From contig OZ245817.1 in the NCBI GenBank assembly GCA_965228475.1, positions 896,001 to 960,000 of the forward strand: a stretch of DNA of 64,000 bases. The letters run 5' to 3'. Origin of the DNA: Myxococcota bacterium (GTDB taxonomy: Bacteria; Myxococcota_A; UBA9160; JAFDDA01). Within the stretch, counting starts at the first letter, position 1. Each line of letters begins with the position of its first letter. Position numbers: made by a program. This document shows positions 38,301 through 44,300 of the stretch, one piece after another.

Positions 38301-41300
38301 AACAAGAGCGAACTCTCGATCGGCTACTGCACGCTCTACGGCGACACGGTCGGCGGCCTGTGCGTGCTCGGCGACGTGTACAAGCACGACGTCTACGCCC
38401 TGGCTCGCCACGCCAACCGCGACGGCGTGCGCGTGCCCGAGAACACGATCGACAAGCCGCCTTCCGCCGAGCTCGCTCCGGACCAGCTCGACACCGACGA
38501 TCTCCCGCCCTACGACGTGCTCGACGCCGTCCTGGCCCAGGCCGTCGAAGGCGAGCTCGGCGTCGACGCGATCACGCCGCCGCCGGGGGCCGACCGGGAG
38601 ACGGTGCGCCGCATCGTGACGCGCCTCGACCGCAACGAGTACAAGCGCCGTCAGGCGCCGCTCGTCCTGCGCGTCTCGGAGAAGGCGTTCGGGTCCGGCC
38701 GGCGGCTGCCGATCGTCCATCGCTACGCGGATTGAGGGGAGGGCGGCGCGGCCGCCGGGCGAGGCCTAGGCCGGCGGCGCTTCGCTGACCGCCTTCACGA
38801 GCTCGGCGCGCGGCCCGCGCGGGCCTTCCTGGACGACGTACTCGACGTTGTCGCCCTCGTTCAGCGAGTCGTACTCCGAGCCCCCGAGGCCCGAGCGGTG
38901 GAAGAAGACTTCCTTGCCGTCCTCGCCGCGGATGAACCCGAAGCCCCGATCGCGGACCATCTTCTTGATGCGGCCCTTGGACTTCGGCCCGCTCGGCATG
39001 GTGCGCGCGGCCGGCGCGCGGCGGCGCGAGCGCCCCTTGGGCTGACGGAACGCGCCGGTGAGCGCGAACTCCTGCTGGAACAGTCCGAAGGGAACCACGA
39101 GGTCTTCCATGTCGGAGGCGTCCGGCGAGAGCAGGACTTCCTCTTCGCCCGCGTCCACGATCGTGTAGCGAAGGCCCGTGTTCTTGTGGGTCACGCTGGA
39201 GCCCGGCTCCAGTTCTTCGAACGTCAACATACGAGACCTCGGATCGCGTTCTGGGGTGGGCAGGAAGAGCCCGGGAGCCGCGCACTATAGAAGATGGGGC
39301 CCCCGCGGGCAAATTCCCGGACGTCCCCTTCGCCGCGGCGCCGGGGGGCTTTCCCGCGGCGCTAGAGTCCGTCTCCATGCGGCTCCCGGCGTCGTTTTCG
39401 TTGCTCGCTCTCGCGCTCGGCTGCGCGGCCGGACCGCCCGCGCCCGCGGGTGACGAGGGCCTTCGTGTCGGCACCCCCGGCGACTATGCACCCTTCAGCG
39501 TGGTGGGCGGGGCGGGCTTCCCCGCCGTCGACGGTTTCGACCTCGACGTCGCGCGCGCCTTCGCCGCCGACACCGGACGCGCGCTCACCCTTCACCGCTT
39601 CCTCTGGCGCGAACTCTCCGCCAACGTCCGGGCCGGAGCCTTCGACGTCGCCATGGGGGGCGTCACCGTTCGCCCGGAGCGGTCGGTGATCGGGCGCTTC
39701 AGCGTGCCGGTCGCCGAGAGCGGTGCGGTCGTCCTGGCCCCCGCGGCGCGGGCCGCGGGCGGGCTCGCAGCCCTCGATCGGGCCGGGGTCACGCTCGGCG
39801 TGAATCGCGGCGGGCACCTCGAGCGCGTCGCGCGCAGGCGCTTTCCGCAGGCGCGCCTCGAGACGTTCCCCGAGAACGACGCCGTCCGCCGCGCGCTCGC
39901 GGCCGGCCGCGTCGATGCGATCGTCACCGACACCATGGAGGCGCCGCACTGGCAGCGGACCCTGCCCGGCGTGGTGCCGCTCGGCCCCTTCACCCGGGAC
40001 CGCAAGGCCTACCTCTGGGCGCCTCCCTTCGACGAGCGAGCGGCCCAGGCCCTCGATGCCTGGCTGCTCGCCCGGGAGGCCCGCGGTTGGCTGGCGGAGC
40101 GGCGCGCGGAGCACATGGGTGCTGCGGGCCGCCCCACGGCGACCGCGGAGGCCGCCCTGACCGCGGCGGTCGGCGAACGCCTCGCCCTCATGCCGTTGGT
40201 GGCGGAAGCCAAGCGCGGTCGCGGGGGCGGCGTCCGCGATGCGGCCCGCGAACGGCGTGTTCTCGAAGCGGCCTGGCGCGCGGTCGCGCGCGAGGCCGCC
40301 GCCCTGGGCGTGGCGCCACCCGAGCGCGGCGACGTCGAGGCCTTCTACCGCGCCCAGATCGAGCTGGCCGTGGAGGTGCAGCGCCGGGCTCTCGAGGGGG
40401 TGGCCCCCGGCGGAGAGCGCTTCCGGCTGGCCGAGGATCTGAGGCCCGCCCTGTTGCGCGTCGGCGATCGGATCGCCTGGCTGCTCGTGCGCCTCGAGCG
40501 GGCCCCGGCGCCGGAGCAGGTCCACGCCGAGCTCGAGCGCTTCGCGGTTCGCCCGGAATCTGCCGCCCGGCTGGTGCGCGCCCTCGAAAGGCTCGTTCAG
40601 GGGCGGGTGAAGGCGCGCGCCAGCAGTCCGGCGATCACCGGCAGGATGATCGAGACCCCGTAGCGAAGCGCCGTCATGCGCGGGCCGAGGATCGGGAGCT
40701 CCCAGGCCAGGGCGCGGTGTACCGCGAGCAGGGACCAGCCCGTCAGGAAGGCGACCACGGGGCCGACGCCGGCCCCCGCCCGGATCATCACCGCGGCGAT
40801 CGGCATCGCCACGAAGGGCCCGGCCGGTGTGAGCGCGCCGACGCCCGTTCCGATCAGGATCCCCCGCAGGCCCGAGCCCTCACCGAGGGTTCGGCTCACC
40901 CACTCGTGCGGGACGAGCACTTCGGCGAGCCCCGCCGCGAGGAAGGAGACGACGAGCAGGGCGCTGTAGCGCACCAAGAGCTGTGCGCCGCCCGAGAGCC
41001 CGGTGCGCAGGAGCTCCGGTCCGCCGGTTCGCCACGCGAGGAAGGCCAGGCCGACCAGGGCCAACAACAGGATGAAGAAGACCGTGTCGATCAACGGGCG
41101 TGCTCCCGAAGTAGGGTTCGGCATCAGTAGAAGGGGGTGCGCGTTCGATGGCGCGGGCGGGCCTTGATGGCGGGGGACTGGCCGCGGTTCCAGAGCCATC
41201 CGTCGAGGTCCGAGGCGGTGGTCGGGACGCCGCGCGCGGCCATCCGCTCGACCATGCGCTCCACGGCGACCACCCCCGCCGCGCGGATCTCGACCTCTTC

Positions 41301-44300
41301 CGGAGAGCCCGCCGGAATGAGCTCCTCCGCATCGATGCGTGCCGCGAGATCTTCGGTGTAGTGCAGGACGCCTTCCATGCGCAGGACGTGGGGGACGAGG
41401 TTGTCGGCGAAGCTCGTCAGGCGTTCGAGTCCGCCGAGGCGTTGGCGCTGCTCGCCGATGTCCGCCGCGGCGAGGTCCGCGACCGTGAGCTGCGCGCGCT
41501 TGAAGAAGGGAACCTCGAGATCCTCGTAGCGGGCGACGTCGCGGTAGAGCGGCATCGTTCCGAGGAGTTCGGCGATGCGCTCCGCCGAGCCGTCTCCTTC
41601 GGCGAGCGGCCCGGCGAAGCGGCCGCCGTAGCGCTCCGTCAGGAACGCGCCGAGCTCGTTCCACGCCTGCGCGAAGAGGGTCATGAGCTCGGCCGGTTCG
41701 GCCCGCGTGAGGTCCTGATCGAAGATCTCGGCGCAGTCCTCGGGCTGGAGGCGCGAGAGCCGAGCGGCGGAGAAGGGGCCGTCGCGATCGAAGCGTTCTT
41801 TCAGCGAGGTCGCGATCGTGAAGTAGCCCGAGAGGCCGGGCCGCTTGCGCAGGTGCGGGAACCAGCCGGAGCCGAAGTTCACCGCGCCGAGCGTGACGAC
41901 GAAGGCGAGACAGTCCTGGGGTTCCCCGGTGAAGTGGTGCGCGGGGTCCGGCGGGGCGGTGGGCGGGGGCTTGCCGTCGAAGGCGTCGGCCAGGGTCTCG
42001 AGGGCTTCGTCGTCGAGCCGGACGAACCGGGCGCGCTCGCACACCGCTGCCGTGGCAGATCGGATGCGTTCGCCGAGGGTCACGGGGTGACCACGCGCAG
42101 CGCCGAAGGCAGGATCTCGAAGCTCGCGTGCGCGGCCGGGAGGCACTCGCCATCGACGTCGAGGAGCAGCGGCCCCCGCGGCTCGAGGACGAGGCGCTGC
42201 CCGGTCCGGAAGATCACCTCGGGGCGGTCGAGATGGCGGCCCCGGTAGAGCTCAGGCATCGCCGAGAGGAGACGCCAGCGCGGGGCGCCCGGGATCACGA
42301 CGACGTCGAGCCGGCCGTCGTCGAGGCGGGCTTCCGGCGCGACGTGCATGCCGCCGCCGAAGTAGCGGCCGTTCGCCGCCGTCGCCAGGACGATCGGCCC
42401 GTCGTGCAGGACGTCGCCGTCGAGTGCGACGCGGCAGGGGACGTCCCGGTAGGTGAAGAGCGCGCGCAGGGTTCCGATCAGGAACGAGGCGGTGCCGCCG
42501 AGGCTCTTCGGCGCTTCGTTCACGAGCCGATCGACGCAGCCCGAGAGCCCGCCGCTCGCGATGTTCACGAAGTGGGTCCGGTGCGGGTCGCCCGCCGGAG
42601 TTCGCACGTCGAGGCGGCCGGCGTCGATGCGCCGCTCGCGCCCGGCGGCGATGGCCGCGGCCGCTTCGGGCACCCGGGGCGGCGTGCCGAGCGTGCGGCC
42701 GAGATCGCCCCCGGTTCCGAGGGGCAGGAAGGCCAGGCGCACGGCGTCGCCCGCGCCCGCGCCGAGCAGGCCGGCGACCACCTCGCTGGCCGTGCCGTCG
42801 CCTCCGGCCACGATCAGGGTCTCGGCCCCCGCGGTGACCGCTTCGCGCGCGATGCGTTCGGCGTCCCGGGGCCCGCGCGTCGCTTCGACCCGCAGCTCGC
42901 CGAGCCGCTCGCGCAGCGCGTCCTCGACCTGGCGGAATCGGCGGCCGGTCGCCCTGTTGCGGCTGGCGGGATTCACGATCACGACCGTGGGCGAGCCCAT
43001 GGACGCAAGTTAGTGGAAGCGCGCGGAGCGGGTCAGGCCGTGCGGGGAGCGAATCTTGCCGCGCAGGGAACGAATCTTCCGCGCGAGGAGCGGGTCAGGC
43101 CGCGCTGGCCGCGCTCTGCGGGCCGGCCTGGCCGGGCGCGATCTGGTAGCGGCGCGTGACGACCGCGCGGTACTCGGCGGCCTCCCGCGCGATGCGCTCC
43201 GGGCTCCAGCCCGCGGTCTCGCCCGCGAGGGCGGCGATGGCCGGCAGCTCCGGAAGCCCCTGGCCCACGGCGAAGAAGGCCATGCGGATGCGGTGTTCGA
43301 GAAGGTCGCTGAGCGTCACCGGGCATTCGGTGTTCACGACGAAGGGAATCTCCGCCCAGACGTAGCGGCTCGTGCCGATGCTCGTGCGCTGCTCGGCCGG
43401 CGCGGCTTCGAGCAGGGTCTGCGCATCGCGGCCGTAGGTCTGCACGAGGTGCCCGGCCGAGAGCGGCGAGAGGCCGTAGTCCTCGGTGAGGGCTTCGGCC
43501 AGGGCGCCGCCGTCGAAGGCGTCGTCGCGCAGGGGCAGGGTGCGGGTTCGCGAAGGGCCCGCGGCGCGGCGTCGCGTCTCCGGGAGCTTCGCCAGGGCGC
43601 GGTCCACGAGGGATTCGCCCATCGCGCGGTGGGTGGTGAGCTTCCCGCCCGCGGCCGAGACCAATCCCGATTCGTCCTCGTAGATCTGGTGCTCGCGGGA
43701 CACCGAGCTCGGCGGAACCGATGCGTCCTGCGCGGCGACGAGCGGGCGGACGCCCGCGTAGACGCTCACGATGTCGTTGGTCGTGAGGGTCACGCCCGGG
43801 AAGGCGGCGTTGGCCGCCGCGAGGAGGTAGTGGACCTCCTCGATCGTGACGACGGGCTCGTCGATCTCTTCGGTGAAGTCGTCGGTGGTCCCGATCAGGG
43901 CCAGGTCGTCCCAGGGCGCGAGGAACATGTGCCGCCCGTCGGCGGCGTCGAAGGTCACGGCTCCCTCGCAGCGCACGCGATCGCCGCGGATCACGAGGTG
44001 GACGCCCTTGGCCGGCCGCAGCTCCGTCTGCGGGAGCGGATGGTCGAAGCCGCGCACGCGTTCGAGGCCGGGTCCGACGGCGTTCACGACGGCGTGGGCC
44101 CGCACGCGGTGGGTCGTGCCCGTGGTGCGGTCGTGGACGGTGGCGCCACGGACCCGGCCGCCCTCGTGGAGGAGCGCGGTGACCTCGGCGTGGTTCACGG
44201 CTTCGGCGCCGAGCGCCCGCGCGCTGCGGACGGTCTCGAGGACGAGACGGGCGTCGTCCGCCTGGCCATCGTGGTAGACGGCGGCCGTGCGGAAACCCTC

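Follow-up and report, generated by a model that had tools for sequence, protein, structure and literature searches.

A translationally coupled operon of a YegS-type kinase, a divergent Qng1 homolog and a half-size permease in an order of Myxococcota

Results

Within the window (the whole 64,000-nt stretch of DNA that was analyzed, from contig OZ245817.1 of a Myxococcota bacterium), a lipid-kinase-type gene overlaps the gene for a Qng1 homolog, which is followed by a small permease gene. The explanation that we favor, at a little less than an even chance, combines a coupled operon of single origin, an ordinary YegS/BmrU-type kinase and a type-B Qng1 that works independently of that kinase.

Gene content of the locus

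Pfam matches and the sequence agree with the genome-wide survey's note that the kinase, the Q_salvage/Qng1 gene and the small permease lie on one strand with a 4-nt overlap (Table 1). The TGA stop of the kinase (42082-42080) overlaps a GTG (42083-42081), and this GTG is favored as the start of Qng1 because Arg8, invariant in the Qng1 alignment, precedes the next possible start. The permease matched ArsP_1 (PF03773) with 45 bits over profile positions 14-130 of 294 only, the N-terminal half, so that the 165-aa protein lacks a full-length ArsP_1 match; NCBIfam matches to SaoE/SO_0444 were weak. Similar permease clusters of ~166 aa are widespread. The GlpD-like gene scored 284.8 bits against the NCBIfam GlpD profile, below the cut-off of 360.

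Table 1. Features of the kinase–Qng1 locus, in window positions.
Feature	Position	Strand	Size	Basis
DAGK_cat+YegS_C kinase (YegS/Rv2252/BmrU-type), GGDG at residues 66-69	42080..43000	-	306 aa	Pfam
Type-B Qng1 homolog (Q_salvage; NFGSGW, FADNLVPHV; C-terminal ...RTRTPFY)	41124..42083	-	319 aa	Pfam
GTGA junction, kinase stop over Qng1 start, translational coupling	42080..42083	-		Sequence
ArsP_1-like half-size permease, 29 nt downstream of Qng1	40597..41094	-	165 aa	Pfam
GlpD-like FAD oxidoreductase, 94 nt upstream of kinase (context, subclade only)	43095..44777	-		Pfam DAO+DAO_C
GntR/FCD regulator upstream of GlpD-like gene (context)	44774..45655	-		Pfam GntR+FCD

Conservation and distribution of the linkage

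In a 41-genome sample of the order, the kinase adjoined Q_salvage in 33 of the 39 Q_salvage-positive genomes; the same adjacency was present in nine further metagenome loci. An [AGT]TGA junction was kept in 32 of the 33 genome loci and in all nine metagenome loci. This stop/start overlap persisted over 40–58% sequence divergence, which argues for selection on co-expression and not mere drift. The survey's proposal that permease, kinase and Qng1 form an operon thus has good support, in the sense of three genes translated together. The GlpD-like gene, which the survey had read as a hint of lipid metabolism, is indeed present here but lay upstream of the kinase in only 8 of the 33 linked loci; a homolog of the GntR/FCD regulator occurred in 6 of 33.

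Among 193 genomes of the order, Q_salvage was found in 176 and a kinase homolog (E<=1e-35) in 164. The survey had counted Q_salvage in 158 of 192 genomes; its frequent adjacency holds, though the details of the counts differ. Loss was uneven: Qng1 occurred without the kinase in 13 genomes and the kinase without Qng1 in one (G069), where Qng1 was cleanly lost and the half-permease is joined directly to the kinase. The gene that immediately follows Qng1 was a permease homolog in 19 of 33 linked loci and in none of 47 other loci.

In line with the survey's caveat that the linkage may be inherited synteny, the neighborhood as a whole was syntenic across the order: aconitase, then kinase–Qng1, SBP+CM_2 (26 loci), CSD and NadE. 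The linked kinases formed a clade of their own (support 93), and because all of them fall in this one clade, a single origin of the linkage follows. No independent origin of the linkage was found in unrelated lineages. A DAGK_cat gene near Qng1 in Bryobacterales, the only other instance, was considered as an independent case and rejected: it belongs to an unrelated kinase lineage (33% identity), lies 3.4 kb away and sits inside a PlsY/acyl-AMP-ligase cluster. The kinase–Qng1 linkage is genuine and long established.

The kinase and its homologs

The kinase scored 98 bits against DAGK_cat and 130 bits against YegS_C. A six-frame search of its genome, in which 17 candidates were scored, gave it as the one DAGK_cat match. 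It passed the NCBIfam subfamily TIGR00147 (153 bits, cut-off 118.65) and none of the equivalogs (PRK13054, TIGR03702, PRK13337 and others); scores against YegS/Dgk equivalog cut-offs were 148 versus 284, 127 versus 387 and 122 versus 385 bits. An AlphaFold2 model (pLDDT 95.3) gave DgkB, SphK1 and YegS as top Foldseek matches (E ~1e-27 to 1e-22, probability 1.00, TM 0.72–0.85). To our knowledge the physiological substrate of YegS is unsettled, and we know of no non-lipid substrate for the YegS-type kinase family.

Across 146 kinase sequences, G66 G67 D68 G69 and D283 G284 were invariant, and E285 was present in at least 90%. Comparison of 43 Qng1-linked kinases with 87 outgroup sequences yielded nine residues specific to the linked clade (L6, R49, R61, V64, A65, L79, A127, G201 and L244), all of them conservative and none in the shared conserved motifs. 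Those motifs, common to linked and unlinked kinases, were N146, S149, G151, N210-G211, G215-G217-M218, Y252/G254/H256 and D283-G284-E285. A remodeled acceptor side was not found in the linked clade in this comparison, which tells against a switch to queuosine.

The phylum sample comprised 251 genomes, 209 of them outside the order. In 110 of these 209, a kinase homolog (E<=1e-40, 33–48% identity) was present. Q_salvage was absent from 105 of the 110, and in the remaining five the two genes were on different contigs. Unlinked homologs scored level with many linked ones (G260, 244 bits, versus linked G019, 215 bits). Of twelve kinase loci from outside the order, four had Lnt on the same strand, one had Lgt and two had a FAD-linked oxidase with CCG, and 80 metagenome loci of unlinked homologs contained Lnt in four, Lgt in five and a FAD-linked oxidase in 13.

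The Qng1 homolog

Q_salvage matched the Qng1 homolog over its full length (169 bits, profile positions 2-285 of 285), and a six-frame search found this single match in the genome. Against the Sphaerobacter thermophilus Qng1 (StQng1) chains the phmmer E value was 3.5e-44. K195, D227, D294, W298 and Y319 were invariant in 69 Qng1 sequences, a pattern that fits a 7-deazaguanine or guanine-type base.

PMC9881137 describes StQng1 D231 as the HhH-motif Asp nucleophile and K199 as the catalytic Lys, and gives the 5'-phosphate contacts as R80, Y232 and K233, to which Q306 and the backbone of Y93 are added. Three of these contacts (R80, Y232, K233) are not kept in the Myxococcota protein, and Q302 and Y87 are retained. 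N228 was invariant in the subfamily to which the protein belongs, termed type B here, as were two lysines, K80 and K307. Judged from the alignment, these lysines could form another phosphate site, their placement being inferred. Hydrolysis of Q-5'MP to queuine by type-B Qng1 is putative.

Type B is a broad subfamily marked by NFGSGW and FADN[LV]VPHV. Type-A Qng1 of Chloroflexota carries FADYK and NF[CS]FW, and 3 of 12 type-A genes adjoined tgt. Among 80 type-B loci from many phyla, 44 had no kinase and two had Tgt within the examined locus. In a sister family (f13), all six genomes had Q_salvage and none of them had the kinase, and a full QueC was present in four of five other genomes with type-B Qng1. 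The passages of the literature examined report no characterized type-B member.

Queuosine genes in the same genome

Six-frame searches agreed with the survey on the following queuosine genes: no full QueC or QueF was found, and two Tgt, QueA, QueG and YhhQ are present. For QueC they returned only PP-loop pieces (best 31.2 bits, positions 4-61 of 210), and for QueF only a partial match of 29 bits (positions 1-58 of 81). The two TGT matches carry GGVSVGE and GGLGLGE and are 49% identical (176/356); QueA (391 bits) adjoins the second. QueG scored 332.6 bits, and Vut_1/YhhQ had one match. PMC11570991 gives GG[LS][AS]G as the motif typical of queuine-using TGTs; neither Tgt of this genome has it.

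Discussion

The locus is best read as a single operon with coupled translation, whose three genes came together once, in the ancestor of the Myxococcota order. The kinase most likely belongs, as an ordinary member, to a YegS/BmrU-type clade that spans the phylum. The probable substrate of that clade is a membrane lipid or a lipid-like alcohol, and it would not be specific to queuosine. Its partner would be a divergent type-B queuine-releasing N-glycosidase with catalytic and base-binding residues kept, which may need no dedicated kinase and could draw its substrate from tRNA turnover or uptake. Gene order, coupling, families and distribution are what the data show; all substrates named here we infer, the lipid only from family and neighbors. 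Several observations sit poorly with an ordinary lipid kinase, namely the retained overlap despite divergence, the lopsided loss, the confinement of the permease to loci with the kinase, and a PfkB–Qng1-like fusion; no clade member has a known substrate.

An unlikely alternative is the survey's: queuosine enters through the permease and is phosphorylated by the kinase, and the resulting queuosine-5'-phosphate is split by Qng1 into queuine and ribose-5-phosphate, the kinase being the missing queuosine kinase. PMC9881137 (2023) and PMC12207525 (2025) give Q-5'MP as the Qng1 substrate and the kinase making it as unidentified; the phrase 'queuosine kinase' was not found in the literature searched. 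The conserved coupling and adjacency, the separate clade, the rarity of the kinase without Qng1, the permease found only with the kinase and a genome with salvage genes but neither QueC nor QueF are all as this alternative would have it, the fusion shows that a kinase-plus-Qng1 logic occurs, and K80 and K307 could supply the phosphate site. However, the linkage has one origin, joint loss or joint assembly absence is trivial for adjacent genes, the acceptor side is unchanged, and homologs elsewhere lie beside lnt or lgt without Qng1. Further against it, StQng1 R80, Y232 and K233 are H77, N228 and L229 here, both Tgt lack the queuine-type motif described in PMC11570991, four of the five other genomes with type-B Qng1 have a full QueC, and most of the 80 type-B loci have neither Tgt nor a kinase. 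Linkage, the basis for this alternative, does not tell whether the kinase makes queuosine-5'-phosphate. Similarly doubtful is the narrower version in which queuosine, or a 7-deazaguanosine close to it, is taken up and then trapped through phosphorylation by the linked clade, which thereby feeds a type-B Qng1 with a phosphate site rebuilt around K80 and K307.

It is improbable that kinase and half-permease together take up and trap a different hydroxylated compound (a polyol, a lipid-like alcohol or a modified nucleoside other than queuosine), which once phosphorylated might or might not be the true substrate of type-B Qng1. In favor of this reading, the permease goes with the kinase and not with Qng1, as in G069, the ribose-phosphate side of type B differs, and type-B Qng1 is common in QueC genomes and rarely near Tgt, but the Qng1 catalytic and base-binding residues are invariant and no positive evidence favors any particular other substrate.

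Even with an ordinary kinase favored, its conserved translational coupling to a Qng1 homolog makes it a cheap candidate to test, and the lipid-kinase-type gene is a testable, so far weakly supported candidate queuosine kinase. If true, it would be the first queuosine kinase named, would supply the missing step in bacteria and would give an orphan kinase family a non-lipid substrate. Independently of the kinase question, the separation of two Qng1 subfamilies, type A beside tgt and a widespread, uncharacterized type B whose ribose-phosphate pocket has changed, bears on how queuosine salvage is annotated in genomes.

Comparison with known systems

YegS (E. coli, Salmonella; 2bon, 2jgr, 2p1r) and DgkB (S. 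aureus; 2qv7) share with the kinase the two-domain DAGK_cat + YegS_C architecture, GGDG and DGE. YegS matched the kinase with a phmmer E value of 5e-26, and the YegS/DgkB chains are about a quarter identical to it (25–28% in Foldseek rows). Coupling to a Qng1 homolog is not reported for either, whereas the kinase here is translationally coupled to one.

StQng1 (7u07, 7uk3, 7u91) and human QNG1 (7ugk) have the family (DUF2419, PF10343) and the full-length Q_salvage domain in common with the Myxococcota protein. The catalytic pair of StQng1, K199 and D231, corresponds to K195 and D227; D298 and W302, which recognize the 7-deazaguanine, correspond to D294 and W298, and the C-terminal Tyr with its carboxylate to Y319. 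Among the phosphate/ribose contacts described in PMC9881137, four are changed: F75 to S72, R80 to H77, Y232 to N228 and K233 to L229.

In the kinase–lnt operons of other Myxococcota, the same kinase subfamily (36–48% identity) is tightly joined to the next gene, with a 4-nt overlap in one case (L110), but the partner is apolipoprotein N-acyltransferase and those genomes have no Qng1.

A PfkB–Qng1-like fusion of Chloroflexota (L217:1898-3688) joins a kinase to a Qng1-type glycosidase, suggesting phosphorylation followed by deglycosylation; its existence shows that nature does use a kinase to feed a Qng1-type enzyme. Unlike the operon here it is a true fusion, with a distant Qng1-like domain (35 bits) and a kinase of the ribokinase/PfkB fold, not DAGK_cat. 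PfkB was the one kinase fold found fused to a Qng1-like domain. The survey's extension to human sphingosine/acylglycerol-type kinases finds no support here. Should the present kinase fail as a candidate, such fusions would be the better lead.

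Operon layout and local signals

The genome-wide survey's note had described a kinase gene overlapping by 4 nt a Qng1 (Q_salvage) homologue, which is followed by a permease gene. Both points were confirmed from the sequence: the four bases GTGA are common to the kinase stop codon TGA and the Qng1 start codon GTG. This overlapping start is likely, because an Arg at residue 8, invariant in the Qng1 alignment, is encoded upstream of the next possible start. The operon is real.

An Rfam scan of positions 40000-46000 (E<=5) contained no preQ1 or other riboswitch family; its five weak matches were each far under the gathering score. 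A promoter and terminator scan gave no signal exceeding shuffles. The predicted complex of kinase and Qng1 scored 0.00, below the mark, and is evidence neither way. Beside the operon, one protein carries a family-3 solute-binding domain and a chorismate mutase domain of type II (25 bits, slightly below the cut-off); a homologue adjoins the operon on the opposite strand in 26 of 80 loci.

Features of the operon, of the source genome and of the loci compared (L numbers denote loci from other records unless stated)
Feature	Record	Positions	Strand	Remarks
GntR/FCD regulator	window	44774-45655	-	farthest upstream gene of the same-strand series
GlpD-like FAD oxidoreductase	window	43095-44777	-	94-nt gap to kinase
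Kinase, 306 aa	window	42080-43000	-	DAGK_cat and YegS_C domains
Q_salvage/Qng1 homologue, 319 aa	window	41124-42083	-	next after kinase
Half-permease, 165 aa	window	40597-41094	-	29 nt past Qng1; ArsP_1 profile, N-terminal half matched
Solute-binding/chorismate mutase protein	window	39377-40663	+	
Tgt paralogue	L015, own genome outside the window	1471-2610		pocket motif GGVSVGE
Tgt paralogue	L016, own genome outside the window	1495-2640		pocket motif GGLGLGE
MFS transporter gene directly before type-B Qng1	L083	3878-6123		Chloroflexota; 4-nt overlap
MFS transporter gene directly before type-B Qng1	L088	5282-6948		Chloroflexota; 4-nt overlap
MFS transporter gene directly before type-B Qng1	L091	1159-3408		Chloroflexota
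MFS transporter gene directly before type-B Qng1	L055	4659-6957		Chloroflexota
Same-strand series with Qng1 and kinase	L028	2582-11359		Bryobacterales
Same-strand series with Qng1 and kinase	L076	2517-11331		Bryobacterales
Same-strand series with Qng1 and kinase	L096	2529-11343		Bryobacterales
Same-strand kinase-Lnt join	L103, L104, L106, L110	kinase ~6000-6900 in each		4-nt overlap in L110
PfkB-Q_salvage fusion, 596 aa	L217	1898-3688	-	Chloroflexota
GIY-YIG nuclease protein, 463 aa	L218	1844-3235	-	

Extent and conservation of the linkage

The linkage of kinase and Qng1 is genuine, tight and long-standing. In a sample of 41 genomes of the source organism's order, 39 contained Q_salvage, and in 33 of these the kinase lay directly upstream on the same strand. 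One genome per species was also scanned with the two motifs of type-B Qng1, the subfamily of the partner (NFGSGW and FADN[LV]VPHV). Among the best 80 type-B loci the kinase was directly upstream of Qng1 in 33, all in Myxococcota-type records or evident mislabels, and a DAGK_cat kinase was missing within the examined flanks of 44. The junction was [AGT]TGA in 32 of the 33 linked genome loci, with the reading frame confirmed by script in 20, and [AG]TGA in a further 9 of 9 loci from metagenomes. Since the linked kinases are only 40-58% identical to the kinase of this genome, the overlap has long been conserved. Directly after Qng1, 19 of the 33 linked loci had a half-permease homologue, against 0 of the remaining 47.

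Across 193 genomes of the order, a kinase homologue (counted at E<=1e-35) was present in 164 and Q_salvage in 176. Both occurred in 163 genomes, a slight overcount because at least one second paralogue, a distant one (G003), passes this threshold; 13 genomes had Qng1 only, one the kinase only, and 16 neither, with six of the 16 from one genus. In the kinase-only genome (G069) Qng1 was cleanly absent and the kinase was joined straight to the permease gene. The 13-to-1 asymmetry, counted over genomes that are not independent where they are kin, fits a kinase useful only together with Qng1; it is weakened because the genes are adjacent, and adjacent genes are trivially deleted together, or missing together where an assembly is incomplete.

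We tentatively prefer to read the kinase as an ordinary YegS/BmrU-type, probably lipid, kinase that is co-transcribed with type-B Qng1. A lipid kinase does not account for the coupling, for the asymmetric losses or for the tie of kinase to permease, and these speak for the earlier proposal of a queuosine salvage operon whose kinase is the missing queuosine kinase, making queuosine-5'-monophosphate; we nevertheless consider that proposal unlikely. A kinase-permease pair acting on some other substrate seems quite improbable, and part of the probability is assigned to none of these three readings.

A search for fused Qng1 forms returned 11 longer proteins. One of them, P0122, a long Qng1 containing DAGK_cat, was rejected as a fusion, reading as a frameshifted kinase-Qng1-permease run-through; the others carried unrelated domains in single records. 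In P0121 (659 aa, a single JGI record) an ADP-ribosylglycohydrolase domain stands ahead of a type-B Qng1 domain, either as a real fusion or as a two-gene run-through.

Synteny and origin of the linkage

Linkage by itself is weak evidence for kinase function here. The entire neighbourhood is syntenic in the order: aconitase is found upstream, and the downstream side has SBP_bac_3+chorismate mutase (26 loci), a gene with a cold-shock domain, and NadE, so that unrelated genes are likewise conserved neighbours of the operon. The conclusions rest on a FastTree phylogeny of 156 kinases, in which one branch (support 93) split 34 linked kinases from the other labelled groups, indicating one origin of the linkage; the linked clan also holds 29 unlabelled representatives, and neighbour-joining trees were discordant with each other on the monophyly of the linked clade. 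A single origin within a wholly syntenic block counts against a queuosine kinase. In the same tree the order's second DAGK_cat paralogues were a distant outgroup (99), and three Bryobacterales kinases grouped with unlinked kinases.

Bryobacterales provided the sole other co-location found, a 33%-identical kinase 3.4 kb downstream of type-B Qng1. The gene order in three genomes was: carrier-protein/AMP-binding enzyme (acyl-AMP ligase, 928 aa), PlsY, type-B Qng1, HAD-IB hydrolase, LarA-like nickel-pincer isomerase (LarAH14/15/16, 817 bits), NAD epimerase and DAGK_cat kinase. This setting is lipid-like, and the co-location of Qng1 and kinase there may be chance. The Bryobacterales Qng1 homologue sits in an apparent lipid or sugar-acid cluster.

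GlpD was set aside as a weak argument for lipid metabolism, as only 8 of the 33 linked loci have it upstream of their kinase. The sister family f13, which lacks the kinase, has a GlpD-like gene at 3-5 kb from Qng1 in three of four loci (L111-L114), and GlpD-Qng1 proximity may thus predate the kinase. The kinase-less type-B Qng1 of these loci stands beside M1 aminopeptidase, pterin-4a-carbinolamine dehydratase and transhydrogenase genes.

The kinase and its unlinked relatives

The kinase passed the YegS/Rv2252/BmrU subfamily model only and no equivalog, and its structure model (pLDDT 95.3) matched DgkB, SphK1 and YegS. Residues were compared between 43 known Qng1-linked kinases and 87 outgroup sequences. 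Only L6, R49, R61, V64, A65, L79, A127, G201 and L244 set the linked clade apart, being conserved within it and different in the outgroup; R142, I147, V206 and D281 were conserved in the outgroup and, among linked kinases, relaxed or replaced conservatively. The remaining conserved motifs were common to both. The rebuilt acceptor site expected if the substrate had changed from lipid to polar nucleoside was not seen between these two sets, which argues against a queuosine kinase.

The kinase clade lives mostly without Qng1. The phylum sample contained 251 genomes, 209 of them outside the order, with kinase homologues taken at E<=1e-40. Of the 209, 110 had a kinase homologue (33-48% identity) and only 18 had Q_salvage; five had both, on different contigs every time. 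The kinase occurred without Q_salvage in 17 of 18 genomes of family f15, 16 of 17 of f26, 9 of 13 of f28 and 6 of 6 of f30, while a sister family of the same class had Q_salvage in 6 of 6 genomes but no kinase (0 of 6).

Qng1 and the permease were absent from all 12 out-of-order kinase loci inspected; the neighbours were Lnt (apolipoprotein N-acyltransferase), encoded on the same strand, in four, Lgt in one, and in two an FAD-linked oxidase together with a CCG protein. The kinase-Lnt joining hints at a role in lipoprotein or lysolipid metabolism for the kinase subfamily. Eighty metagenome loci, collected with near-outgroup kinases as queries, were flanked by Lnt in 4, Lgt in 5 and FAD-linked oxidases in 13. 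Qng1 followed the kinase in 9 of the 80, each 43-57% identical to this genome's kinase, and two further loci of high identity are cut off by the contig edge.

Queuosine genes of the genome

The genome, one 5.0-Mb contig of ~72% G+C, was searched in six frames for Q_salvage, DAGK_cat, QueC, QueF and others. The searches bore out the background that had been claimed: no full QueC or QueF, two Tgt, QueA, QueG, YhhQ and a single DAGK_cat match, alongside a single Q_salvage match. The top match for QueC had 31.2 bits (positions 4-61 of 210) and that for QueF 29 bits (positions 1-58 of 81), neither being complete. The two Tgt genes are 49% identical, and QueA adjoins the second; the YhhQ-type transporter is single, and there is one IU_nuc_hydro nucleoside hydrolase.

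Both Tgt paralogues retain the Cys of D-E/Q-C, and neither matches the usual bacterial GGLAVGE or GG[LS][AS]G, the motif given for queuine-using TGTs in a portion of PMC11570991. The motif is not decisive, because the abstract of that paper reports a Bartonella enzyme with dual specificity (PMC11570991).

The phrase 'queuosine kinase' was not found in the literature searched, nor was the operon described there, and published Qng1 neighbour tables may already list the kinase. Passages of PMC9881137, PMC12207525, PMC11570991 and PMC11130926 do not name it as a Qng1 neighbour.

The type-B Qng1 partner and known enzymes

The Qng1 partner belongs to a divergent subfamily. The two type-B motifs were matched by 582 relatives from many phyla, so type B is not peculiar to kinase-linked genes. 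No recurrent kinase was found beside type-B Qng1 in other phyla; L084 has a Ser/Thr kinase adjoining Qng1 and L049 an FGGY kinase two genes off, both judged coincidental. The Chloroflexota MFS transporter encoded directly before type-B Qng1 is a candidate importer of its substrate. Full QueC was present in four of five other genomes with type-B Qng1, and Tgt lay inside the locus in only 2 of the best 80 type-B loci.

Q_salvage occurred in 35 of 151 Chloroflexota genomes, including the unpublished G444. Among the 12 best-scoring Chloroflexota Q_salvage genes, 11 were type A (FADYK, NF[CS]FW) and three directly adjoined tgt. The L218 protein contains a GIY-YIG nuclease domain (63 bits), then a weak Q_salvage-like stretch (27 bits); its neighbours, an HD-GAF protein on one side and a caspase/EAD7 protein on the other, may form a context of defence type.

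Aligned by HMMER with the solved Sphaerobacter Qng1, whose residue roles are taken from passages of PMC9881137, the partner keeps catalytic D227 and K195, base-recognising D294 and W298, as well as the C-terminal Tyr. S72 stands in place of the ribose-stacking F75, and H77, N228 and L229 in place of the phosphate contacts R80, Y232 and K233. N228 is invariant in 69 aligned type-B sequences, as are K80 and K307, which are absent from the Sphaerobacter enzyme and could form an alternative phosphate site in type B.

In the L217 protein PfkB (74.7 bits) is fused to a distant Q_salvage domain, which at 35 bits exceeds the cut-off; the protein is a candidate one-polypeptide enzyme that phosphorylates and then deglycosylates. 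Such a fusion favours a queuosine kinase in showing that phosphorylation followed by removal of the base is a design used in nature with this fold; the fusion evidence is thus for the PfkB (ribokinase) fold and not for the DAGK fold.
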